This document shows, piece after piece, positions 1 to 40,355 of a stretch of 64,000 bases of DNA. The first letter of the stretch is position 1. Every line of letters starts with the position of its first letter. Both the position numbers and the translations under genes were made by a program. The notes under the pieces were generated by a model, which ran no database searches, had not been told where the DNA came from, and saw nothing but the letters and a program-made list of their open reading frames with translations. The DNA comes from Escherichia coli (lineage in GTDB: Bacteria; Pseudomonadota; Gammaproteobacteria; Enterobacterales; Enterobacteriaceae): NCBI RefSeq assembly GCF_003334255.1, contig NZ_QOWU01000006.1; one strand, given 5' to 3'.

Positions 1-619
1 TCAGCGTCAGCAGGCCGTTAACGACCAGGTAAATAATCCCTGCCGCACCGAACACCATTACATCGTAGGTGCGTCCGTACAACAACTGGCTGTATCCCAT
101 CACTTCCATCAGCGTAATGGTGTATGCCAGAGAGGTACTTTTGAATACCAGCACCACTTCGTTGGAATAAGAAGAGAGCGAGCGTTTAAAGGCATACGGC
201 AGCAGGATCGCCAGCGTATCTTTTTTGCTCATTCCCAGGGCGCTACAGGACTGCCACTGACCTTCCGGGATCGCACGAATTGCACCGTAAAACAGCTGCG
301 TGGTATACGCCGCACTATTCAGCGACAACGCAATCAGCGCACATAACCACGGTTCTGACAACAAATGCCACAGTGCCGGATACTCCTGCAAAGTCGGAAA
401 CTGGCCCGGCCCGTAATAAATCAGGAAGATCTGCACCAGCAGCGGCGTACCGGTAAACAGCGTGATATAACCCCGCACCAGCCACACCAGCACCGGCGTT
501 TTCAGCGTCAGGATGATGGTAAAAATCAATGCCAGAATCAGTGCCACAATCAGCGAGGCAACGGTTAGCGTCAGGCTGGTGTGTAGCCCTTTCATCAGTT
601 CGGGTAAATACTCAAACAT
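1..619 (-). CDS. artM: Arginine ABC transporter permease ArtM (3' end cut by window edge)
   Basis: Minus-strand frame from ATG at 617-619 translates [13 protein letters not shown]...; start overlaps artQ stop; expected operon position. Confidence 0.85.
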   Translation of the reverse strand, partial: MFEYLPELMKGLHTSLTLTVASLIVALILALIFTIILTLKTPVLVWLVRGYITLFTGTPLLVQIFLIYYGPGQFPTLQEYPALWHLLSEPWLCALIALSLNSAAYTTQLFYGAIRAIPEGQWQSCSALGMSKKDTLAILLPYAFKRSLSSYSNEVVLVFKSTSLAYTITLMEVMGYSQLLYGRTYDVMVFGAAGIIYLVVNGLLTL

Positions 620-1335
620 TAGCTGGGCCTCCGCTCAAAACGTGTCGCGCGCAGGTCAATGCGTTTGAGAATGTACTGACTGAGCAGGGTGATCACCAGG
701 TAAATCGCCGCCGCCACAATGTACCAGGTAAATGGTTCCTGGGTACGAGTAGCGATGCTTTTTGTTTGCAGCATTAAATCATTCACACTAATCAAACTGA
801 CCAGCGCGGTATCTTTCAGCAGCACCAGCCACTGGTTACCGAGGCCAGGCAGCGCATGACGCCACATCTGCGGCATCACCAGACGGAAAAAGATAGCCGA
901 TTTCGACAGCCCCAGCGCCTGACCAGACTCCCACTGACCCACCGGCACCGCTTTCAACGCGCCCCGAAGCGTTTGCGAGGCATAGGCGGCATACAGCAGT
1001 GACAGAGCGATGACACCACAAAGGAACGGGCTAACGTCGAAGTTCTCAATGTCCATCTGCACTGGGATCTGCACGAACCCAAGATTGATAGTGAAGCCAT
1101 CCGAAAGCGTCAGCAGCAGCTGCGAGGAGCCAAAATAGATAAACAGCACCACCAGAATTTCTGGCAGGCCACGCAGAATGGTTACCAGCGCTGAACCTGC
1201 CCACGCGACAGGACGCCATTTTGCCGACTCCCATACCGCAAAGAACATCGCCAGCGCCAGCCCGACAATCAATGCACAAACGGCAAGGCCGACGGTCATC
1301 CCGGCGGCGCTTGCTAAAGGAAAAAATTCATTCAT
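619..1335 (-). CDS. artQ: Arginine ABC transporter permease ArtQ
   Basis: 238-aa ORF, polytopic membrane protein; operon context artP-artI-artQ-artM. Confidence 0.9.
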
Positions 1336-1341
1336 CAGGAA

Positions 1342-2073
1342 TTACTTCTGGAACCATTTGTTGTAGATGGTTTCGTAAGTGCCATCTTTCTTCACTTTTT
1401 CCAGCGCAGTGTTGAGTTTCTGCTGCAGCTCAGTGTTGCCCTGACGTACCGCGATGCCGAGGCCAGTGCCGAAGTAATCTTTATCGGTCACTTTGTCGCC
1501 CACCGCCGCCAGTTTCGGGTTATCTTTCAGCCACTCAGTGACCACTGCGGTGTCACCGAAGACGCCGTCGATACGCCCGTTTTGCAGATCCAGTTTTGCG
1601 TTCTGGTAGCTGTCATACGGAACGGTAGTGATTTCCGGGTGCTTATCCATAATGAATTTCTGGTGTGTCGTCCCGTTCTGTACGCCGACTTTTTTGCCTT
1701 TCAGCTGATCAACACTGGTGTATTTGCCTTGCTGACCCACAAACAGGGCAGAGTTGTCATAGTACGGGGTGGTAAACAGCACCTGCTTTTCACGCTCCGG
1801 AGTGATATCCATGCCCGCCATCACGGCTTCTACGCGACGGAATTTCAGGCTTGGGATCAGGCTGTCAAACGCCTGGTTAGAGAAAGTGCAGGTTGCATCA
1901 ATCTCTTTACACAGCGCTTGTGCCAGGTCGACGTCAAAACCAACGATCTGGTTGTTTGCATCAATCGATTCAAACGGAGGATAGGAGGCTTCGGTAGCAA
2001 AACGAATGGTTTCGGCAGCTGTGGCGGAAAGACTAAAACCTGCAATTAACGCGGCAATCAGAACTTTTTTCAT
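1342..2073 (-). CDS. artI: Arginine-binding periplasmic protein ArtI
   Basis: 243-aa ORF with signal peptide MKKVLIAALIAGFSLSATA; solute-binding protein family. Confidence 0.9.
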   Translation of the reverse strand: MKKVLIAALIAGFSLSATAAETIRFATEASYPPFESIDANNQIVGFDVDLAQALCKEIDATCTFSNQAFDSLIPSLKFRRVEAVMAGMDITPEREKQVLFTTPYYDNSALFVGQQGKYTSVDQLKGKKVGVQNGTTHQKFIMDKHPEITTVPYDSYQNAKLDLQNGRIDGVFGDTAVVTEWLKDNPKLAAVGDKVTDKDYFGTGLGIAVRQGNTELQQKLNTALEKVKKDGTYETIYNKWFQK

Positions 2074-2090
2074 TGTTGTTATCCCGAATC

Positions 2091-2819
2091 TTAGTGAGAG
2101 AGATAGTTTTTAAATGCTTCGGTTTGCGGCTCGGTAAAGCAGCTCGCGTCGCCTTGTTCTACGATATGACCATTTTCCATATACACCACTCGGCTGGCGG
2201 TTTTACGCGCCACTTCAACTTCGTGGGTGACGATCACCTGGGTAATATTCGTTTCTGCCAGCTCACGAATGATGCTGACGATTTGTGCCGTAATTTCCGG
2301 GTCCAGTGCGGCGGTCGGTTCATCGAACAGCAGTACCTGCGGTTCCATCATCAACGCACGGGCAATAGCAACACGCTGCTGCTGACCACCAGAAAGATGC
2401 AGCGGGTAACGATCGCTATAAGGTTTGAGACGCAGACGTTCCAGCAGTTTTTCTGCACGGGCCAGCGCCTGATCTTTACTCAACCCCAGTACACGGCAGG
2501 GCGCTTCAATCAGGTTTTGCTGCACGGTCAGATGCGGCCACAGGTTGTATTGCTGAAACACCATGCCAACGTTACGACGCAAATCGCGAATCGCTTTGTC
2601 AGAGGGTGTTTTGGTGAAATCGAAATGGTTGCCTGCAATGTTGAGCGTACCGGAGCGCGGCATCTCAAGCAGATTGAGTACACGCAGCAGCGAGCTTTTA
2701 CCCGCGCCGCTGGGGCCAAGTAACACCAGCGTTTCGCCCTGTGGGCAATCCAGCGTGATATCGAACAGCGCCTGATGCGCGCCGTAGAAGCAATTAATGC
2801 CGTTTAATTGAATACTCAT
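2091..2819 (-). CDS. artP: Arginine ABC transporter ATP-binding protein ArtP
   Basis: Walker [18 protein letters not shown] signature; start set at internal ATG (MSIQLNG...) rather than longest ORF. Confidence 0.9.
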
Positions 2820-3036
2820 TGACACTCGTATACTGGCAGTCTGATAGCTATTGAGGTCGAAGATAGTACCTTTGACAGAATAATTATGCAATATTTCTGC
2901 TTTAAAAGTTAAAAGCAAAGCGCATTATTCAATAAACATAGCACAAAATAACGGGGGCGGTGGTCGGCGAGCATAAATGTCGGCATTCCTCACGAAATGC
3001 CGGACAATTTACGGGGTTTATTGGTTGATCAAGGCG

Positions 3037-3552
3037 TTAGCGATTCTCGATGGACTGACGGAGCGTACCCGCCGTGGCATGAACGCTACCGCCTAAGTAA
3101 CGCACATCGTCGATGACCCAACACTGGCCTTCCTGAATCATTAACACTTCATCCTGCCAACCCTGGTCACCCTGTTTGAGATCCACGCGCAATGGAATGT
3201 TACGGGCATCACGATTAGGGATAGTCGATGCACTGGCAACGTGGGCGCTATCTGGCAAGGTGGTTCGACTGGAGAATGGATCGTTGGTCAGTAGTTCCCG
3301 ATGGTTATTATCCTGGGAGGCATCGCTAAGCAGTGTCGCCAGTTTGTCGCTCAGATAAGGGCGCAAGGCGGTGATGTCGTTGCTGCGGTGCAAAATGCGG
3401 TAGTCATAAAATTGCTGGGCCACGTTATCCGGGCCTCCTTCAACGCAAGGACCACTGCGTGTGCCGTTATCTTTATAAGCTGGAGTGACTGTGGTGCAGG
3501 CACTGAGGAGCAGTGCGCAGGGGATAAGCATTGTCAATTTGCTGTAGCGCAT
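3037..3552 (-). CDS. ybjP: Lipoprotein YbjP
   Basis: 171 aa, lipobox LLLSAC near N-terminus. Confidence 0.85.
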   Translation of the reverse strand: MRYSKLTMLIPCALLLSACTTVTPAYKDNGTRSGPCVEGGPDNVAQQFYDYRILHRSNDITALRPYLSDKLATLLSDASQDNNHRELLTNDPFSSRTTLPDSAHVASASTIPNRDARNIPLRVDLKQGDQGWQDEVLMIQEGQCWVIDDVRYLGGSVHATAGTLRQSIENR

Positions 3553-3677
3553 AATGATTTCCTTATAAGCGATCGCTCTGAAAGCGTTCTACGATAATAA
3601 TGATATCCTTTCAATAATAGCGTATCAGTCTGATAATGCTTTTGAGATCGAAGGCTTAGCAAACAAGGAGATCGATC

Positions 3678-4001
3678 ATGCAATTTTCTACAACCCCAAC
3701 TCTGGAAGGCCAGACCATCGTTGAATATTGCGGTGTGGTGACCGGCGAAGCGATTTTAGGTGCCAATATTTTCCGTGATTTCTTTGCCGGTATCCGCGAT
3801 ATCGTTGGCGGACGTTCCGGTGCGTATGAAAAAGAACTGCGTAAAGCACGGGAGATCGCCTTTGAGGAATTAGGCTCCCAGGCGCGGGCGCTGGGGGCCG
3901 ATGCCGTCGTCGGTATTGATATCGACTACGAAACGGTCGGGCAAAACGGCAGTATGCTGATGGTTAGCGTCAGCGGTACGGCGGTGAAAACGCGTCGATG
4001 A
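3678..4001 (+). CDS. ybjQ: UPF0145-family protein YbjQ
   Basis: 107-aa [20 protein letters not shown]...; conserved position. Confidence 0.85.
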
Positions 4002-4828
4002 GAAGATTCTTCTGGCTGGTCGCTGCCGCTCTGTTATTGGCAGGGTGTGCAGGCGAAAAAGGCATTGTCGAGAAAGAGGGATATCAGCTTGATACCCGAC
4101 GCCAGGCGCAGGCGGCGTATCCGCGCATTAAAGTGCTGGTGATCCACTACACCGCAGATGATTTTGATAGCTCGCTGGCGACACTGACCGATAAGCAGGT
4201 CAGCTCGCATTATCTGGTCCCTGCGGTACCACCGCGATACAACGGTAAACCGCGCATCTGGCAACTGGTGCCGGAACAAGAACTGGCCTGGCATGCGGGG
4301 ATTAGCGCCTGGCGCGGGGCAACGCGCCTTAACGACACCTCTATTGGCATTGAGCTGGAAAACCGTGGCTGGCAAAAATCGGCCGGAGTGAAATATTTTG
4401 CCCCGTTTGAACCGGCACAGATTCAGGCGCTTATTCCACTGGCGAAAGATATTATTGCCCGTTATCACATCAAGCCGGAAAACGTAGTGGCACATGCGGA
4501 TATCGCACCGCAGCGCAAAGACGATCCGGGGCCATTATTTCCCTGGCAGCAACTGGCGCAGCAGGGGATTGGTGCCTGGCCGGATGCGCAGCGGGTTAAC
4601 TTTTACCTTGCCGGGCGCGCGCCGCACACACCGGTAGATACCGCGTCATTGCTGGAGCTTTTGGCGCGCTACGGTTATGACGTTAAACCTGATATGACAC
4701 CGCGCGAGCAGCGGCGCGTGATTATGGCATTCCAGATGCATTTCCGCCCGACGTTATATAACGGCGAAGCGGATGCAGAAACTCAGGCGATTGCCGAAGC
4801 ATTGCTGGAGAAATACGGGCAGGATTAG
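3998..4828 (+). CDS. amiD: N-acetylmuramoyl-L-alanine amidase lipoprotein AmiD
   Basis: 276 aa, lipobox LLLAGC, amidase_2-like region; overlaps ybjQ stop. Confidence 0.85.
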
Positions 4829-5838
4829 CGCGGCAGTTTTCCGTGGTCGCGTAGCCAGGCGGCAGTTTTCTCGATACCTTCATCCAGGGTGATGACCGGC
4901 TGATAACCTAACTCTTCCTGCGCACGCGTAATATCCAGCGTAAAGTCAAAATTCAACTTGGAGACGCCGTAGTGGGTCAGCGGCGGCTCTTTTGCTGACT
5001 TGCGGCCTAAACGCTCCATGCTGCGGGCGATCATATCCAGCATCGGGTAGGGGACGGAACGAATACGACAGTCAATATTCAACTCGTCGATCAGCTTCTG
5101 CACGATGCTGCGCAGTGTGCGATGCTCGCCGTTGGTGATGTTGTACACACGCCCGGAAGGTAGCTTATCGCAGGCTTCCTGGCTTGCCAGCCACATTGCG
5201 TGCACGGCATTTTCATAGTAGGTCATATCGACCAGCGCACTGCCGCCATGCGGTAACAGAATACTGCCGTAGTGGTGCATCATATGCGCCAGACGGGGAA
5301 TAAAGACTTTATCGTGCGGTCCGAACAGACTTTGTGGGCGCAGAATAGTAAAGCGCGTTTGTGGATTCGCCTGCGAAAGCATATTGATCACTTCTTCGCT
5401 GGCTGCTTTGCTGCGGGCAAACTCGTTGGCGAAGCGGTGAGGGCGAAAATCTTCTTTAATATCGCGATGGTGGTGATAATCGAAGTACAGGGAGGGGGAA
5501 GAGATATGAATAAAGTTACGCACACCCCAGGCGACAGCCCATTCACCCAGGCGGCGAGTGGCGCGAACGTTAGCCAGATCGAAAGCCTGTTGTGTCCCCC
5601 AGGGTGAGGTAAAGCTGGAGCAGTGCCACAGCGTATCAATGCCCGCGAGCATCACTTTAGCTTGTGATGAAACCAGCTCGGTCAGATCCGCCGGAACAAA
5701 CTCTGCGCCCATTTTTTCCAGCAATTTGCCCATTGCCTCGTTGCGACCGGTCGCTCGCACGCTGATGCCTTTCTGGCATAAAAACTCTACCGCGTTTCGA
5801 CCTAAGCCGCTGGTGGCGCCGGTAACCAGTACCTTCAT
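4825..5838 (-). CDS. ybjS: NAD-dependent epimerase/dehydratase family protein YbjS
   Basis: Rossmann motif [11 protein letters not shown]; start set at internal ATG (MKVLVTG). Confidence 0.85.
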
Positions 5839-19435: not shown

Positions 19436-21378
19436 CGCCTTTGCTCGAATTAAAGGATATTCGTCGCAGCTATCCTGCCGGTGATGAGCAGGTTGAGGTG
19501 CTGAAGGGCATCAGCCTCGATATTTATGCGGGTGAGATGGTCGCGATTGTTGGCGCTTCGGGTTCCGGTAAATCGACCCTGATGAATATTCTCGGCTGTC
19601 TGGATAAGGCCACCAGCGGCACCTATCGCGTCGCCGGTCAGGATGTTGCCACGCTGGACGCCGATGCGCTGGCGCAACTGCGCCGCGAGCATTTCGGCTT
19701 TATTTTCCAGCGTTACCATTTGCTTTCGCATTTAACCGCCGAGCAGAACGTTGAAGTACCCGCCGTCTATGCTGGTCTTGAGCGGAAACAGCGACTGCTT
19801 CGTGCCCAGGAGTTGCTGCAACGGCTGGGGCTGGAAGACCGTACAGAGTATTATCCGGCACAGCTTTCGGGTGGTCAGCAACAGCGCGTCAGCATCGCGC
19901 GGGCATTGATGAACGGTGGTCAGGTAATTCTTGCCGATGAACCAACCGGCGCACTGGACAGCCATTCTGGCGAAGAGGTGATGGCGATCCTGCATCAGCT
20001 GCGCGATCGTGGGCATACGGTGATTATCGTCACCCACGATCCGCAGGTCGCTGCTCAGGCCGAGCGGGTGATCGAAATTCGCGACGGCGAAATTGTGCGC
20101 AATCCTCCCGCCATTGAAAAAGTGAATGTTACTGGCGGGACGGAACCTGTTGTCAACACGGTGTCTGGCTGGCGGCAGTTTGTCAGCGGTTTTAACGAGG
20201 CGCTGACGATGGCATGGCGGGCGCTGGCAGCGAATAAAATGCGTACTTTACTGACCATGCTGGGGATTATTATCGGTATTGCGTCGGTGGTTTCCATTGT
20301 CGTGGTGGGTGACGCCGCCAAACAAATGGTGCTGGCGGATATTCGTTCTATTGGTACGAATACTATTGATGTCTATCCCGGGAAAGATTTTGGCGATGAC
20401 GATCCGCAATATCAGCAGGCGCTGAAGTACGACGACTTAATCGCCATCCAAAAACAACCGTGGGTCGCCTCAGCCACACCTGCCGTCTCGCAAAACCTGC
20501 GCCTGCGTTATAACAATGTTGATGTTGCTGCCAGTGCCAATGGCGTGAGCGGCGATTATTTTAATGTCTATGGCATGACCTTCAGTGAAGGAAACACCTT
20601 TAATCAGGAGCAGCTGAACGGTCGTGCGCAGGTCGTGGTTCTCGACAGTAATACTCGCCGCCAGCTTTTCCCCCATAAAGCAGATGTGGTTGGCGAGGTG
20701 ATTCTGGTCGGCAATATGCCCGCCAGAGTCATTGGTGTGGCGGAAGAAAAACAGTCGATGTTTGGTAGCAGTAAAGTGCTGCGTGTCTGGCTACCTTACA
20801 GCACGATGTCCGGGCGAGTTATGGGCCAGTCGTGGCTTAACTCCATTACTGTCAGGGTGAAAGAAGGATTTGACAGCGCCGAGGCGGAACAGCAACTCAC
20901 GCGTTTACTTTCACTGCGCCACGGAAAGAAGGATTTCTTTACCTGGAACATGGACGGCGTCTTGAAAACTGTTGAAAAGACCACACGTACTTTACAACTG
21001 TTTCTGACGCTGGTGGCGGTGATTTCGCTGGTGGTGGGCGGTATTGGTGTAATGAATATTATGCTGGTGTCAGTGACCGAGCGGACGCGGGAAATTGGCA
21101 TTCGCATGGCTGTAGGTGCGCGAGCAAGCGATGTTTTGCAACAGTTCCTGATCGAAGCCGTACTGGTTTGCCTGGTCGGTGGCGCGTTGGGAATAACACT
21201 GTCACTGTTAATTGCTTTCACCTTGCAGCTTTTCTTACCCGGCTGGGAGATTGGTTTTTCACCGTTGGCGCTGCTGCTGGCGTTTCTCTGCTCGACGGTC
21301 ACCGGGATTTTATTTGGCTGGTTACCCGCACGAAATGCGGCACGACTGGATCCAGTAGATGCTCTGGCACGAGAGTAA
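19432..21378 (+). CDS. macB: Macrolide export ABC transporter MacB (ATPase-permease fusion)
   Basis: Walker [19 protein letters not shown]-terminal FtsX-like permease. Confidence 0.9.
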
Positions 21379-21394
21379 TTTTTGAGATAAAAAT

Positions 21395-21413
21395 GCCAGC
21401 CGATCGGGCTGGC
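21395..21413. terminator. Bidirectional hairpin terminator between convergent macB and cspD
   Basis: Stem gccagcc/ggctggc flanked by T-runs on both strands. Confidence 0.6.
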
Positions 21414-21450
21414 ATTTTGCCTTTAGGATGTACACAATGAGACAGAAGAG

Positions 21451-21675
21451 CTATGCGACTGCCGCTTCTACTTCGACGGGCACAATAACACTGGCGTGAT
21501 TGCCTTTTGGCCCCTGGTGGACATCAAACTGAACGGATTGTCCAGCTTTTAGCGTTCTGTAACCATCCATCTGAATGGTGGAATAATGAGCGAAAATATC
21601 TTCGCCGCCGCCTTCAGGGCAGATGAAACCAAACCCTTTGGCATTGTTGAACCACTTAACAGTACCCTTTTCCAT
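21451..21675 (-). CDS. cspD: Cold-shock-domain protein CspD
   Basis: 74 aa MEKGTVKWFNNAKGFGFI; RNP motifs. Confidence 0.9.
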   Translation of the reverse strand: MEKGTVKWFNNAKGFGFICPEGGGEDIFAHYSTIQMDGYRTLKAGQSVQFDVHQGPKGNHASVIVPVEVEAAVA

Positions 21676-21997
21676 GCTTCGACATCCTTCGCAAATCTTA
21701 TACAAGTAAGATGGAATAAACCGGGGTCAGAGAGGGGGCTGTTCAAAACCTCGCCAACTCTAGAAATACAATTTAGAGAATTAGGGCGAGCCGTCAAGCA
21801 TTTGACAGGGGACAAGGGGCAGGTATGAATCAAAAATTTGAAGCAGTTAACGCTATTGACAGGAATGTGACAGATGTCGCTGATGCCAACGATAGATGAT
21901 AGTTATCTATCATGTGGAGTAGATTGGTCAGGCAAATAAGCTCTTGTCAGCGGCAGGGCGTTCTGCCGATAACCGTAACCGAAGATGATAACTGACA

Positions 21998-22318
21998 ATG
22001 GGTAAAACGAACGACTGGCTGGACTTTGATCAACTGGCGGAAGAAAAAGTTCGCGACGCGCTAAAACCGCCATCTATGTATAAAGTGATATTAGTCAATG
22101 ATGATTACACTCCGATGGAGTTTGTTATTGACGTGTTACAAAAATTCTTTTCTTATGATGTAGAACGTGCAACGCAATTGATGCTCGCTGTTCACTACCA
22201 GGGGAAGGCCATTTGCGGAGTCTTTACCGCCGAGGTTGCAGAAACCAAAGTGGCGATGGTGAACAAGTACGCGAGGGAGAATGAGCATCCATTGCTGTGT
22301 ACGCTAGAAAAAGCCTGA
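21998..22318 (+). CDS. clpS: ClpAP adaptor ClpS
   Basis: 106-aa ORF immediately upstream of clpA. Confidence 0.9.
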
Positions 22319-22348
22319 ATGCAGGCATAAAAATTGGGGGAGGTGCCT

Positions 22349-24625
22349 ATGCTCAATCAAGAACTGGAACTCAGTTTAAATATGGCTTTCGCCAGAGCGC
22401 GCGAGCACCGTCATGAGTTTATGACCGTCGAGCACTTGTTACTGGCGCTGCTCAGTAACCCATCTGCCCGGGAGGCGCTGGAAGCGTGTTCTGTGGATTT
22501 GGTTGCGCTCCGTCAGGAACTGGAAGCCTTTATTGAACAAACCACACCCGTTCTGCCTGCCAGTGAAGAGGAGCGCGACACACAGCCGACGCTGAGTTTT
22601 CAGCGTGTACTGCAACGTGCGGTCTTCCATGTCCAGTCCTCCGGTCGCAATGAGGTTACCGGTGCAAACGTTCTGGTCGCTATCTTTAGCGAACAGGAGT
22701 CGCAGGCGGCATATCTGTTGCGTAAACATGAAGTCAGCCGTCTCGATGTGGTGAACTTTATCTCTCATGGCACGCGTAAAGACGAGCCGACACAGTCTTC
22801 TGATCCTGGCAGCCAGCCAAACAGCGAAGAACAAGCTGGTGGGGAGGAACGTATGGAGAATTTCACGACGAACCTGAATCAGCTTGCGCGCGTGGGCGGA
22901 ATCGACCCACTGATTGGTCGTGAGAAGGAGCTGGAGCGTGCTATTCAGGTTCTCTGCCGTCGCCGTAAAAACAACCCGCTGCTGGTGGGGGAATCTGGTG
23001 TCGGTAAAACCGCGATTGCGGAAGGTCTTGCCTGGCGAATTGTTCAGGGCGATGTGCCGGAAGTGATGGCTGACTGTACGATTTACTCTCTCGATATCGG
23101 TTCTCTGTTAGCGGGCACAAAATATCGCGGCGACTTTGAAAAACGTTTTAAAGCGTTGCTCAAGCAGCTGGAGCAGGACACTAACAGCATCCTGTTTATT
23201 GATGAGATCCACACCATTATCGGTGCGGGTGCAGCGTCTGGTGGTCAGGTCGATGCGGCTAACCTAATCAAACCGTTGCTCTCCAGCGGTAAAATTCGTG
23301 TAATTGGTTCGACAACCTATCAGGAGTTCAGCAACATTTTCGAGAAAGACCGTGCTCTGGCGCGTCGCTTCCAGAAAATTGATATTACTGAACCGTCGAT
23401 CGAAGAAACTGTTCAAATCATCAATGGCCTGAAACCGAAGTATGAAGCGCACCACGACGTGCGTTATACCGCAAAAGCGGTGCGTGCGGCGGTAGAGCTG
23501 GCGGTGAAATACATTAACGATCGTCATCTGCCGGATAAAGCCATTGATGTTATCGACGAAGCGGGCGCTCGCGCACGCCTGATGCCGGTAAGCAAACGCA
23601 AGAAAACCGTTAATGTGGCGGATATTGAGTCCGTGGTGGCCCGTATTGCACGCATTCCAGAGAAGAGTGTTTCTCAGAGTGATCGTGATACCCTGAAAAA
23701 CCTCGGCGATCGCTTGAAAATGCTGGTCTTCGGTCAGGATAAAGCCATTGAGGCGCTGACTGAAGCCATTAAGATGGCGCGTGCAGGTTTAGGTCACGAA
23801 CATAAACCGGTTGGTTCGTTCCTGTTTGCCGGCCCTACCGGGGTCGGGAAAACAGAGGTGACGGTACAGCTTTCGAAAGCTTTGGGCATTGAGCTTCTGC
23901 GCTTTGATATGTCCGAGTATATGGAACGCCATACCGTCAGCCGTCTTATTGGTGCGCCTCCGGGATACGTTGGTTTTGATCAGGGCGGTTTGCTGACTGA
24001 TGCGGTCATCAAGCATCCACATGCGGTGCTGCTGCTGGACGAAATCGAGAAAGCGCACCCGGACGTGTTCAATATTCTGTTGCAGGTGATGGATAACGGT
24101 ACGCTGACCGATAACAACGGACGCAAAGCAGACTTCCGTAACGTGGTGCTGGTGATGACCACCAACGCCGGGGTACGGGAAACTGAGCGCAAATCCATTG
24201 GTCTTATCCACCAGGATAACAGCACCGATGCGATGGAAGAGATCAAGAAGATCTTTACACCGGAATTCCGTAACCGTCTCGACAACATTATCTGGTTTGA
24301 TCATCTGTCAACCGACGTGATCCATCAGGTGGTGGATAAATTCATCGTCGAGTTGCAGGTTCAGCTGGATCAGAAAGGTGTTTCTCTGGAAGTGAGCCAG
24401 GAAGCGCGTAACTGGCTGGCCGAGAAAGGTTACGACCGGGCAATGGGCGCTCGTCCGATGGCGCGTGTCATCCAGGACAACCTGAAAAAACCGCTCGCCA
24501 ACGAACTGCTGTTTGGTTCGCTGGTGGACGGCGGTCAGGTCACCGTCGCGCTGGATAAAGAGAAAAATGAGCTGACTTACGGATTCCAGAGTGCACAAAA
24601 GCACAAGGCGGAAGCAGCGCATTAA
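22349..24625 (+). CDS. clpA: ATP-dependent Clp protease ATP-binding subunit ClpA
   Basis: Two AAA+ modules ([16 protein letters not shown]); start set at [10 protein letters not shown]. Confidence 0.95.
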
Positions 24626-24647
24626 TCTGATTGTTAGGTAGGTTGGT

Positions 24648-24688
24648 CAAGTCCGTAATCTCGAAAGAGGTTACGGACTTTTTGTTTA
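24648..24688 (+). terminator. Rho-independent terminator after clpA
   Basis: Hairpin caagtccgtaa...ttacggactt followed by tttttgttt. Confidence 0.6.
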
Positions 24689-24837
24689 TGGGGTGGAGGA
24701 GGTTCAGACCCTTTTTTTAATGATGATGGTAAGTTGTTGATAATTAGTGCTGCGGGAAGGTAAGGATAAAAAAGGGTGCTGCAGGAGAATGGGATGGTTT
24801 TGCTTTATTAACAACGGGCTAAACGTGTAGTATTTGA

Positions 24838-24925
24838 GTTCACTGCCGTACAGGCAGCTTAGAAATTCACAGGTAACATACTCCACCCGCCCACCATGTT
24901 CACTGCCGTACAGACAGATAAAATG
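24838..24925. CRISPR. Orphan type I-F CRISPR remnant (two repeats, one 32-bp spacer)
   Basis: Repeat 1 gttcactgccgtacaggcagcttagaaa (24838-24865) matches the I-F consensus; spacer 24866-24897; degenerate repeat 2 gttcactgccgtacagacagataaaatg (24898-24925); no cas genes in window. Confidence 0.75.
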
Positions 24926-24968
24926 CGAAAAAAAAGCTCGCACTTTCGTACGAGCTCTTCTTTAAATA

Positions 24969-25056
24969 TGGCGGTGAGGGGGGGATTCGAACCCCCGATA
25001 CGTTGCCGTATACACACTTTCCAGGCGTGCTCCTTCAGCCACTCGGACACCTCACC
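24969..25056 (-). tRNA. serW: tRNA-Ser (GGA anticodon)
   Basis: Reverse complement reads GGTGAGGTGTCCGAGTGG...GGTTCGAATCCCCCCCTCACCGCCA, 88 nt with long variable arm. Confidence 0.9.
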
Positions 25057-25309
25057 AAATTGTTTTGCTACCAAACCTCATGGGTGGCAACGGGGCGCTA
25101 CTATAGGGAGTTGGAGTAAAACGGTCAAGAAGAATTTTAATGATAATTATTGTTTGCTCATACTGTAAACAAGTTGTGCAGTATATCTACATCGAGACAA
25201 GTTACGGACTTATACTTCCAAAGTACTTCATACATATCACAAAATAAAAAGGCCGGTTAAACCGACCTTTTACTCGTTCTTTCTCTTCGCCCATCAGGCG
25301 GTAAAACAA

Positions 25310-25531
<222 letters not shown>

Positions 25532-25812
25532 ATCCTCTGGGGTATCACTACCGTAATTTGAACCGGCAAGATAATGCCGAAGTTCTGTAAATAAGTAAAG
25601 ATTTGCGCGCTAAATCGCAACAAACAGGTTCGGCACATTACTCCGAAAACACACGGCTAAGCCGCACCAAAAGCGCAACGTATAAGGGAGCGGTGAGATA
25701 AACGATGGGCGTTACCTGACGCGAAAAATTCCTTATCGGCAGCGGGGTAATGAGCGTAACCAACTCTGCGACCGCAATTATAACACTCTGGGGAGAAATG
25801 TGCCGAAAACAT

Positions 25813-26517
25813 TCATTCTTGTGGTGAAAACAAGCATCGTGGTACCCAGAAATTATTCGGCAATCGTCCGAGGCGCATTTGATTGAGATAATTAAGGTAA
25901 TCCCGGCGGGGAATTTCGCAGGCACCAAGCGATGCTGTGTGATCGTTAAGGACCTGGCAGTCGATAAGCTTACCGCCATGACCGATAAATTCCTCACAGA
26001 ATACCAGAAGCGCCGTTTTAGACGCATTTTCCATCCGGCTGAACATGGACTCGCCACAAAATAGCGTTCCCTGGGCCACGCCGTACATACCGCCGACAAG
26101 CTCATCTTCACGCCAGACTTCAATGGAGTGGGCATGGCCGAGTTCGTGAAGGCGATGGTAGGCTTCGACCACGCCACGCGTGATCCAGGTTCCTTCTTCG
26201 CGATCGCTGGCACAGCCTTCAATGACCTGACCAAAAGCGTAATTCATCGTGACACGATAGGGCGAGCGTTTATGAAATCGCTTCATACTACGGCTGATAT
26301 GCAGTGATTCTGGCCATAGCACCGCGCGGGGATCGGGCGACCACCAGAGGATGGGGTCGCCTGGAGAAAACCACGGAAAAATACCACGCTGGTAAGCCAT
26401 TAACAGGCGCGCAGGGCTAAGATCGCCCCCAAGTGCCAGCAGGCCGTTAGGCTCACGTAATGCGCCTTCCGGGGAAGGGAAGGCTATTGAATGGCGAGAA
26501 AGCTGAACCAGGCGCAT
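25813..26517 (-). CDS. aat: Leucyl/phenylalanyl-tRNA--protein transferase
   Basis: 234-aa ORF in conserved position downstream of cydCD. Confidence 0.9.
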
Positions 26518-32308: not shown

Positions 32309-35300
32309 TTGAGCCAGGAATACACTGAAGACAAAGAAGTCACATTGACAAAGTTAAGTAGCGGCCGCCGCCTTCTGGAGGCGTTGCTGATCCTTATTGT
32401 CCTGTTTGCCGTCTGGTTGATGGCTGCCTTACTAAGCTTTAACCCTTCGGACCCCAGCTGGTCGCAAACGGCCTGGCATGAACCTATCCATAATTTAGGT
32501 GGGATGCCCGGTGCGTGGTTGGCAGATACGCTGTTCTTTATTTTTGGCGTGATGGCTTACACCATTCCCGTCATTATTGTCGGCGGTTGTTGGTTTGCCT
32601 GGCGTCATCAGTCCAGCGACGAATACATTGATTATTTTGCCGTTTCGCTACGCATCATTGGCGTTTTGGCGCTCATCCTTACCTCCTGTGGTCTGGCGGC
32701 AATCAACGCTGACGATATCTGGTATTTTGCCTCCGGTGGCGTCATTGGCAGCTTACTAAGCACTACGCTACAACCACTGCTACACAGTAGCGGGGGAACT
32801 ATTGCGCTGCTCTGCGTTTGGGCAGCGGGCCTGACGTTGTTCACCGGTTGGTCATGGGTGACCATTGCTGAAAAACTCGGCGGCTGGATTTTAAACATTC
32901 TCACCTTCGCCAGTAATCGTACCCGTCGCGATGATACCTGGGTCGATGAAGATGAGTATGAAGACGACGAAGAGTATGAAGATGAAAATCACGGCAAACA
33001 GCATGAATCACGCCGTGCCCGTATTCTTCGCGGCGCGCTAGCGCGTCGTAAACGGTTGGCGGAAAAATTCATTAATCCGATGGGGCGGCAAACAGACGCT
33101 GCGTTGTTCTCCGGTAAGCGGATGGATGATGACGAAGAGATTACCTACACTGCACGCGGTGTGGCTGCCGACCCGGACGACGTCCTATTTTCGGGCAATC
33201 GTGCAACGCAGCCAGAATATGACGAATACGATCCATTATTAAACGGTGCGCCAATTACCGAACCTGTCGCTGTAGCAGCTGCTGCTACCACGGCGACACA
33301 AAGCTGGGCTGCGCCGGTTGAACCTGTGACTCAGACGCCGCCTGTTGCCTCTGTTGATGTTCCACCTGCGCAACCTACAGTAGCCTGGCAGCCTGTACCG
33401 GGTCCACAAACGGGAGAGCCGGTTATTGCTCCTGCACCGGAAGGTTACCCACAGCAGTCACAATATGCGCAGCCTGCAGTGCAATATAATGAGCCGCTGC
33501 AACAACCAGTACAGCCGCAGCAGCCGTATTATGCACCTGCAGCTGAACAACCTGCGCAACAGCCGTATTATGCCCCTGCGCCAGAACAACCGGTGGCAGG
33601 TAACGCCTGGCAAGCCGAAGAGCAGCAATCCACTTTTGCTCCACAGTCTACATACCAGACTGAGCAAACTTATCAGCAGCCAGCCGCTCAGGAGCCGTTG
33701 TACCAACAGCCGCAACCCGTTGAACAGCAGCCTGTTGTGGAGCCTGAACCCGTTGTAGAAGAGACAAAACCCGCGCGTCCGCCGCTTTACTACTTTGAAG
33801 AAGTTGAAGAGAAGCGAGCCCGTGAACGTGAACAACTTGCGGCCTGGTATCAACCGATTCCAGAACCGGTTAAAGAACCAGAACCGATCAAATCTTCGCT
33901 GAAAGCACCTTCTGTTGCAGCAGTACCTCCAGTAGAAGCCGCTGCCGCTGTTTCCCCGCTGGCATCTGGCGTGAAAAAAGCGACACTGGCGACGGGGGCT
34001 GCCGCAACCGTTGCCGCGCCAGTCTTCAGTCTGGCAAATAGCGGTGGACCGCGTCCTCAGGTCAAAGAGGGGATTGGTCCGCAGTTGCCACGACCGAAAC
34101 GTATCCGCGTGCCAACTCGTCGTGAACTGGCGTCTTACGGTATTAAGCTGCCCTCACAGCGTGCGGCGGAAGAAAAAGCCCGTGAAGCCCAGCGCAATCA
34201 GTACGATTCTGGCGATCAGTACAACGATGATGAAATCGATGCGATGCAGCAGGATGAACTGGCACGTCAGTTCGCCCAGACACAGCAGCAACGCTATGGC
34301 GAACAGTATCAACATGATGTGCCCGTAAACGCAGAAGATGCAGATGCTGCGGCAGAGGCTGAACTGGCTCGTCAGTTTGCGCAAACTCAACAACAACGTT
34401 ATTCCGGCGAACAACCGGCTGGGGCGAATCCGTTCTCGCTGGATGATTTTGAATTTTCGCCAATGAAAGCGTTGCTGGATGATGGTCCACACGAACCGTT
34501 GTTTACGCCAATTGTTGAACCTGTACAGCAGCCGCAACAACCGGTTGCACCGCAGCAGCAATATCAGCAGCCGCAACAACCAGTTCCGCCGCAGCCGCAG
34601 TATCAGCAGCCACAACAGCCGGTTGCGCCGCAGCCACAATATCAGCAGCCGCAACAACCGGTTGCGCCACAGCAGCAATATCAGCAGCCGCAACAACCGG
34701 TTGCGCCGCAGCAGCAGTATCAGCAGCCACAACAGCCAGTTGCGCCACAACCGCAGGATACCCTGCTTCATCCGCTGTTGATGCGTAATGGCGACAGCCG
34801 TCCGTTGCATAAACCGACGACGCCGCTGCCTTCTCTGGATTTGCTGACACCGCCGCCGAGCGAAGTGGAGCCGGTAGATACCTTTGCGCTTGAACAAATG
34901 GCTCGCCTGGTGGAAGCGCGTCTGGCTGATTTCCGTATTAAAGCCGATGTCGTCAATTACTCTCCGGGGCCGGTTATCACTCGCTTTGAATTGAACCTGG
35001 CACCGGGCGTAAAAGCGGCGCGCATTTCTAACTTGTCACGGGACCTTGCCCGTTCACTTTCGACGGTGGCGGTGCGTGTCGTTGAAGTTATTCCTGGCAA
35101 ACCCTATGTAGGTCTGGAGTTACCGAATAAAAAACGACAAACCGTTTATCTGCGCGAAGTTTTGGATAACGCCAAATTCCGCGATAATCCGTCGCCATTA
35201 ACCGTGGTGCTGGGTAAAGATATCGCCGGTGAGCCGGTGGTTGCCGATCTGGCGAAAATGCCGCACTTGTTGGTTGCGGGGACTACCGGTTCCGGTAAAT

Positions 35301-39805: not shown

Positions 39806-39989
39806 TACCCAATTTTTCTGAATCTAAAAAGCGCCTGCGGGCGGTTTTTGCATGAGATTAATTAACTGAAAATAAAAGGGATTTATTTTCAGGTGTCCAT
39901 ATAATGTCCATCTTTGAAACAAAAAAGCCCGCAGTTTTTACGCTACGGGCTTTGTTTTTCTTTGTGACTTGCGTGTGAGGGTGCTACTT

Positions 39990-40355
39990 TCGACCGAACC
40001 TTTGGCAACCGGATAGCGGGGGCTTTCACCCCCGCTGCGGTTTCTTACTGTTTACACTGCAAGAACGCCGCAAATTCTGACCACATGATGTTAAGTCTGA
40101 ACTCACACGGCGAACGGTGTATCATCCAGACTGTCAACAACATGGTTAAGCATAAAATGCTCACGATGATCGTTTTTTGCGGCATAGCGCTTGCTCCTTT
40201 TTCAAAGAGGCGCTAACCTTCCACTTGCGAAGGTTAGATGGTTAGGGCCTCGGGTTAAACAAATGTTTGACTCGGGGCCTTTTCACATCCGGCCTTCAGG
40301 TAATCCTTCCAGCCGTCAGCCGAAAGGCACCCACGTGTAATCTACTGATTTCCCT
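39990..40355. repeat. Tandem repeat unit 1 (hok-like toxin locus)
   Basis: ~366 bp, ~95% identical to unit 2, with indels clustered in a predicted stem-loop. Confidence 0.85.
40045..40185 (-). CDS. Hok-family type I toxin (46 aa), copy 1
   Basis: Translates MPQKTIIVSILCLTMLLTVWMIHRSPCEFRLNIMWSEFAAFLQCKQ; single TM helix, conserved Cys, resembles HokA (MPQK...); AAGGAG upstream. Confidence 0.75.
   Translation of the reverse strand: MPQKTIIVSILCLTMLLTVWMIHRSPCEFRLNIMWSEFAAFLQCKQ

Follow-up and report, generated by a model that had tools for sequence, protein, structure and literature searches.

The array and its genomic setting

The window analysed here is a stretch of 64,000 nucleotides (64 kb) from Escherichia coli. 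Apart from the array described below, it represents the collinear E. coli core region from artM to serS, followed from position 39850 by a P2-like prophage. Between clpA and the tRNA-Ser gene serW lies a short CRISPR array in which a single spacer is framed by a canonical type I-F repeat and a degenerate terminal one; a leader precedes the array and the serW terminator follows it (Table 1).

Table 1. Features of the clpA-infA interval in the window (positions refer to the whole stretch)
Feature	Position	Strand	Remarks
clpA, upstream core gene	22349-24625	+	Annotated by transfer from L004, a genome with 99.97% identity to the window
Leader, CRISPR4.1-type	24626-24837	+	AT-rich; holds the clpA terminator hairpin (24649-24680)
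Type I-F repeat 1	24838-24865	+	GTTCACTGCCGTACAGGCAGCTTAGAAA; canonical, 28 nt; Rfam RF01317 CRISPR-DR4
Predicted mature crRNA, 60 nt	24858-24917	+	8-nt handle, 32-nt spacer and 20-nt 3' hairpin
Spacer, anti-cas1f, 32 nt	24866-24897	+	TTCACAGGTAACATACTCCACCCGCCCACCAT
Repeat 2, terminal, degenerate	24898-24925	+	GTTCACTGCCGTACAGACAGATAAAATG; last 8 nt diverged
tRNA-Ser terminator	24928-24963	-	Directly abuts the terminal repeat
tRNA-Ser(GGA), serW, downstream flank	24969-25056	-	
infA	25310-25528	-	

The first repeat matches the CRISPR-DR4 model at 28 of 28 positions and reaches 50.1 bits (E 5e-10, Rfam), compared to a gathering score of 35 bits for this family. It is present in a single copy within the window, with none expected in 100 shuffles. 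Its hairpin comprises a 5-bp stem and a 5-nt loop with a predicted fold of -8.6 kcal/mol, and its last 8 nt, CUUAGAAA, correspond to the 5' handle of a crRNA. The second repeat starts 60 nt after the first and is identical to it at 22 of 28 positions, including 19 of the 20 positions of the hairpin part, so that the two copies frame the spacer with the period of a two-repeat array. The terminal copy scores 20 bits in Rfam, which is below the gathering score, and its G17A substitution disrupts the fourth stem pair, leaving a predicted fold of -1.4 kcal/mol that is no better than that of shuffled sequence. Cas6f cleaves at the 3' base of the repeat hairpin. From this established position, the predicted crRNA would extend from the handle of the first repeat to the hairpin of the terminal repeat, and it would arise solely when Cas6f is provided in trans. 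Degenerate terminal repeats are usual for CRISPR arrays, and at this locus modified terminal repeats were recorded in 100% of cases (PMC2886076 Table 1).

Repeat consensus, the presence of two repeats and the leader all place the array in the type I-F repeat family, and only cognate cas genes in the vicinity are missing. Across the entire 64 kb, genomes collinear with the window (at least 99.6% identical, compared over window positions 1-4862, 4600-39849 and 39800-64000) contain no annotated cas genes. The array is therefore an orphan, which leaves its assignment to the repeat family unaffected. A first-pass annotation made from the DNA alone had proposed a type I-F repeat, a 32-nt spacer and a degenerate second repeat at 24838-24925, without cas genes in the window and at the known E. 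coli CRISPR3/4 locus; boundaries, type, orphan status and location are all confirmed, and the repeat withstands the exact alignment to the I-F consensus on which that proposal depended. The RefSeq/PGAP records examined leave the two-repeat array without annotation (features 'none'), and where longer orphan arrays occupy this site they are entered as 'CRISPR' direct_repeat, e.g., in ET650.

The leader has a GC content of 41%, compared to 53% for the window. It contains no strong match to a sigma-70 promoter at the standard threshold; a relaxed scan retrieved candidates with at best 8/12 matches and a lone weak -10 element, GATAAT, at 24739-24744. Overlapping open reading frames, such as that at 24704-24943 on the minus strand (79 aa), are unannotated in the RefSeq records examined and were taken as spurious. 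Sub-threshold Rfam matches to sX4, Thr_leader and Plastid-psbl-rps4 over this region were dismissed as side-effects of the tRNA-Ser gene and its terminator.

E. coli strains with a type I-F system carry CRISPR4.1, the operon cas1f-cas3f-csy1-csy2-csy3-cas6f, the tRNA-Ser gene and CRISPR4.2 between clpA and infA (PMC2886076, PMC3903273). We found this order in strain DEF10 (locus L001), in which the CRISPR4.1 leader and array are followed by cas1f, cas3f, csy1, csy2, csy3, cas6f, tRNA-Ser and a second leader with CRISPR4.2. Window positions 19629-24865 align contiguously with L001 positions 1-5237 at 98.3% identity, and because this alignment runs through the leader to the end of the first repeat, the window retains the CRISPR4.1 leader and its first repeat. 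The alignment breaks at window position 24865 (L001 5237) and resumes at the tRNA-Ser terminator, where window position 24925 corresponds to L001 14001. Thus, approximately 8.8 kb of L001, containing spacers and the cas operon, are replaced in the window by one spacer and a distinctive terminal repeat; the absence of the I-F cas operon, which the first-pass annotation had attributed to loss or to its never having been present, is thereby borne out, as is the identification of the locus. The terminal repeat of the window ends in ATAAAATG, while the terminal repeats of I-F-positive strains end in TATTCACA or TCTTCAAA.

The two loci also differ on the other side of the tRNA gene. Between tRNA-Ser and infA, L001 contains 440 bp of leader and CRISPR4.2, compared to 89 bp of unrelated sequence in the window. 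Neither an array nor a leader of CRISPR4.2 was detected in the serW-infA spacer (25057-25309), and local alignment to the L001 CRISPR4.2 leader gave a score no higher than that of shuffled sequence, on which ground a CRISPR4.2 remnant at this position was rejected. Two short direct repeats, D1 and D4, were also considered; they are not collinear and look like chance occurrences.

Several observations concern other parts of the window. The prophage (39850-64000) lies directly downstream of serS, runs off the end of the window and encodes ogr, gpD, tail sheath and tube, tape measure, baseplate, lysis, capsid, terminase and portal genes. Just 12 of 5,426 complete E. coli genomes contain 80% or more of this stretch, and the collinear genome L004 has a serS-dmsA junction without a prophage. 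Two genes for Hok/Gef-family toxins are located at the serS-proximal prophage edge (approximately 40045-40185 and 40517-40657, minus strand; annotation from DETEC-S792), and no Sok-type RNA scored above the Rfam threshold. A 688-aa open reading frame at 53813-55879 (minus strand), annotated as 'DUF6645' and situated between the lysis and tail genes, matches phrog_143, a family of unknown function (E 1e-295), and has no PADLOC defence match; it may be a cargo gene. In the core region, ftsK contains in-frame tandem repeats of 39 nt and 117 nt at 34526-34746 (and at 33516-33591) that encode a Gln/Pro-rich linker, and the length of the gene varies between strains (3,990 nt in L004, 4,068 nt in L002 and 4,107 nt in L001).

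The spacer and its target

In DEF10, the antisense strand of cas1f (L001 5687-5718) agrees with the spacer at 30 of 32 positions, and the two bases located 5' of this protospacer are CC, the canonical I-F PAM. CC on the spacer-sense strand is equivalent to GG on the complementary strand at the leader-proximal end in the notation of Almendros et al. 2012 (PMC3506596). The mismatches fall on spacer positions 4 and 6. A second E. coli cas1f allele, present in approximately 40 of 241 cas1f genomes, has three mismatches to the spacer. No perfectly matching cas1f was found among the two sampled E. coli alleles, both of which have G at position 4 and hence a mismatch in the seed, or among the matches listed below. 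The window itself contains no second site for the spacer.

The protospacer encodes part of the conserved motif NGGRVEYVT-S-EG near the N-terminus of Cas1f. A codon-degenerate scan with one genome per species retrieved this motif, as NGGRVEYVT[D/E/S]EG, from at least 120 loci of 120 species (L012-L131). Among the matches listed, the PAM flank CC is present in 116 of 120; it is retained because the PAM is the complement of a conserved Gly codon, and escape by PAM mutation would consequently alter the protein. The variable residue of the motif is Asp in 101 of the 120 and, among the matches listed, Ser solely in Pseudocitrobacter faecalis. Among these 120 listed matches, cas1f of other species has at least four mismatches to the spacer of the O157-type array described below and at least five to the window spacer. 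The nearest non-E. coli protospacer among them is that of P. faecalis, with four mismatches to the O157-type spacer. As judged from these sequences, the closest known source of the spacer among the listed matches would be an E. coli-type cas1f.

Four further spacers, sampled from orphan arrays of other strains, also hit I-F cas genes: the target is cas3f in three cases and csy3 in one, at 1-4 mismatches, and a CC flank is present in 3/4. Two traits of the anti-cas CRISPR4.1-2 cassettes, the position at the clpA to tRNA-Ser/infA site in the absence of cas-F and a spacer match to an I-F cas gene with an I-F PAM, are found in the window. We conclude that this is very probably the K-12 allele of the orphan anti-cas1f type I-F array of cas-F-negative E. 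coli, known as CRISPR4.1-2 (Diez-Villasenor, Almendros, Mojica) or CRISPR3 (Touchon and Rocha). The array is present in most E. coli and has already been described, and the first-pass annotation recognized and interpreted it correctly, without naming the target of the spacer. The comparisons which that annotation had suggested turned out informative: the spacer has no phage or plasmid target but the cas1f match with its PAM, and the clpA-infA interval is collinear with the DEF10 locus through the leader and first repeat and identical to that of K-12 MG1655. Because of the cas1f match with a CC PAM, the locus is a published anti-cas array and not just an inert 'remnant'.

Distribution and alleles in E. 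coli

The region is matched in all 5,426 complete E. coli genomes, 4,444 of which cover at least 80% of it. A spacer match is present in 2,579 of these genomes and is exact in 1,433, including B REL606. Approximately 241 of the matches correspond to cas1f proper, a gene that occurs in 241/5,426 genomes, and the orphan spacer is present in about 2,300-2,340. The matches fall on 2,583 places in 2,579 records, so that at most four records contain two, and the orphan anti-cas1 spacer and cas1f therefore almost never occur in one genome; across strains, their distribution is near-exclusive. Spacer and terminal repeat are both identical to the window in 1,429 of the 5,426 genomes, including K-12 MG1655, to which window positions 23966-25825 (1,860 bp) are 100% identical.

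Alleles that differ by one or two bases from the spacer and terminal repeat of the window account for approximately 560 genomes, compared to approximately 1,430 of the K-12 type. They include the array of O157:H7-type strains (L005), in which spacer position 6 is T and the terminal stem (GGCAG) is unbroken, whereas the window and K-12 have A at this position in addition to the G17A stem break. The O157-type spacer has a single mismatch to cas1f, which is synonymous (AGT versus AGC, Ser). With cas1f and the consensus repeat as outgroups, both substitutions of the K-12 allele, at spacer position 6 and at G17, are derived. Type I surveillance complexes flip out every sixth base of the crRNA, leaving it unpaired with the target, and the change at position 6 should therefore be neutral for targeting. 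G17A breaks the Cas6f-binding hairpin at the 3' end of the sole crRNA, and it might impair Cas6f binding. It is conceivable on these grounds, although we consider it doubtful, that the K-12-type allele, the commonest in E. coli, descends from the O157-type allele and has lost part of its function. If this were true, the barrier against I-F uptake would vary by E. coli lineage and would be close to a fossil in K-12-like strains.

Further variants of the locus exist. In L006 and L007 (373-456 in both), the anti-cas1 spacer has lost 4 nt and measures 28 nt (CCACCCGCCCACCAT to CCACCCACCAT), which looks like decay in these lineages; additional anti-cas3f spacers, one of them 33 nt long, lie upstream. 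E. coli E28 has a different, anti-csy3 spacer together with an intact GGCAG terminal stem. Its locus (L002 13466-14046) further contains three tandem units of approximately 179 bp between the orphan array and tRNA-Ser, each with the serW terminator, the tRNA 3' end and an element annotated as 'RtT sRNA'; no such unit is present in the window or in the MG1655 record examined.

Proposed function, alternative readings and related systems

Touchon & Rocha 2010 found CRISPR3 between clpS and aat in all Escherichia genomes that they analysed, with spacers matching Ypest-type Cas1, Cas3 and Csy2 solely in genomes lacking those genes, and they proposed for it an 'anti-CRISPR' role in keeping out invading I-F systems (PMC2886076). 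The single cassette was named CRISPR4.1-2 by Almendros et al. 2014, who observed at least one CRISPR4 repeat in every strain analysed (PMC3903273). As cited in PMC5972030 and PMC13142298, Almendros et al. 2016 (Nat Microbiol 1:16081) report that such arrays are constitutively expressed and block the uptake of I-F cas genes.

In the best-supported account, which is taken from this literature, the array would act as a trap. It would be transcribed from its own leader, as indicated by the published work, and would be silent on its own in a cell that lacks Cas6f, the Csy complex and Cas2/3. If an expressed I-F operon enters, its own Cas6f and Csy proteins would load the resident crRNA. The loaded complex would then turn against cas1f of the invading DNA, either through interference or, because of the mismatches, through primed adaptation, and the I-F system would be unable to establish itself. 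The seed mismatch at position 4 would favour priming over direct interference; the abstract of the 2016 study by Almendros and colleagues is said to report both. The route of entry possibly matters as well. An I-F locus that recombines into the chromosome via homology in the clpA and infA flanks would replace the orphan array itself, and in this case the trap could presumably act solely via pre-existing crRNA or via sister chromosomes.

Three other readings need to be weighed against such a barrier. The array could be an inert fossil left by deletion of the I-F operon, with the K-12-type allele yielding no usable crRNA and persisting because it is short and neutral. The broken terminal hairpin (-1.4 versus -8.6 kcal/mol), the mismatch that extant E. 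coli cas1f shows in the seed, at position 4, the 4-nt spacer deletion variants and the lack of a predicted strong leader promoter would all be in line with this, and the Cas6 of a type I-F CAST needs a 5-bp repeat stem for efficient activity (PMC11300857). Yet the spacer is kept in about 2,300 genomes across lineages, and every sampled orphan spacer targets an I-F cas gene, nearly all with a PAM, which is not expected from random decay of an ancestral array. The K-12-specific substitution at position 6 should cost nothing, as every sixth crRNA base is unpaired, and arrays of this kind are reported to be active (PMC5972030, citing Almendros 2016). An inert fossil thus appears rather unlikely.

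An autoimmunity scar is the second alternative, i.e., an ancestral I-F system acquired an anti-cas1 spacer, which selected for deletion of the cas genes and left an array that has been without a role since. PMC2886076 attributes this scenario to Diez-Villasenor et al. 2010. It accommodates the match of the spacer to the cognate cas1f with a PAM and the position of the gap, since the cas operon is absent precisely from the interval between the first repeat and the serW terminator. However, Touchon & Rocha argue that most E. coli branches contain cas-less arrays while those accompanied by cas genes form a monophyletic group, that cas-less genomes have a conserved terminal repeat, and that anti-cas spacers are retained where other spacers turn over (PMC2886076). 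Furthermore, the tail ATAAAATG is unlike those of the CRISPR4.1 and CRISPR4.2 terminal repeats of I-F-positive strains, and because of this difference the orphan form did not simply arise from the extant locus by a recent deletion. We regard the scar as an unlikely explanation; it concerns the origin of the array and is compatible with a present function as a barrier.

That the spacer is an ordinary phage or plasmid memory with an incidental match to cas1f is hardly credible, since searches of PLSDB, INPHARED and IMG/VR with the spacer yielded no supporting evidence (the best plasmid match is itself a cas1f, from Vitreoscilla, with 22/25 bases and E 9; the best phage match covers 17 nt with E 3; and the lone exact IMG/VR match is a mislabelled E. 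coli clpS-clpA-array fragment of 4 kb), in contrast to the 30/32 match to cas1f with its PAM. The latter IMG/VR contig (L134, IMGVR_UViG_2534682060_000012), listed as 'viral', consists of E. coli clpS-clpA and a three-repeat orphan array whose first repeat also carries G17A, and it probably represents host flank or a misclassification.

The anti-cas reading makes the array a textbook case of CRISPR turned on its own cas genes, and it helps to explain why most E. coli lack a constitutively active I-F system. Beyond confirmation the finding matters little; K-12 MG1655 carries the identical copy. Its value lies in annotation: without a RefSeq feature, the array will be detected anew by each scan, and it can safely be labelled a CRISPR4.1-2 anti-cas1f orphan array.

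The closest known counterpart is the orphan array between clpA and serW of K-12 MG1655, which agrees with the window in leader, repeat, spacer, terminal repeat, position and geometry, although the host of the window is not K-12, as shown by the P2-like prophage next to serS. The O157:H7-type allele shares the locus, the origin of the spacer and the tail of the terminal repeat. I-F-positive E. coli have the site, the repeat and the CRISPR4.1 leader (98% identity) in common with the window, which lacks their cas1f, cas3f, csy1-3 and cas6f genes and their CRISPR4.2 leader and array; in addition, the window contains one anti-cas1f spacer, whereas the spacers of the I-F-positive strains examined have no match to I-F cas genes. 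Orphan or isolated I-F arrays of Pseudomonas aeruginosa are likewise cas-less or distant from cas genes and have kept a recognisable leader (PMC13142298). In contrast to the array in E. coli, they are described as horizontally moved or reductive remnants with spacers against mobile genetic elements, and not as targeting their own cas genes (PMC13142298).
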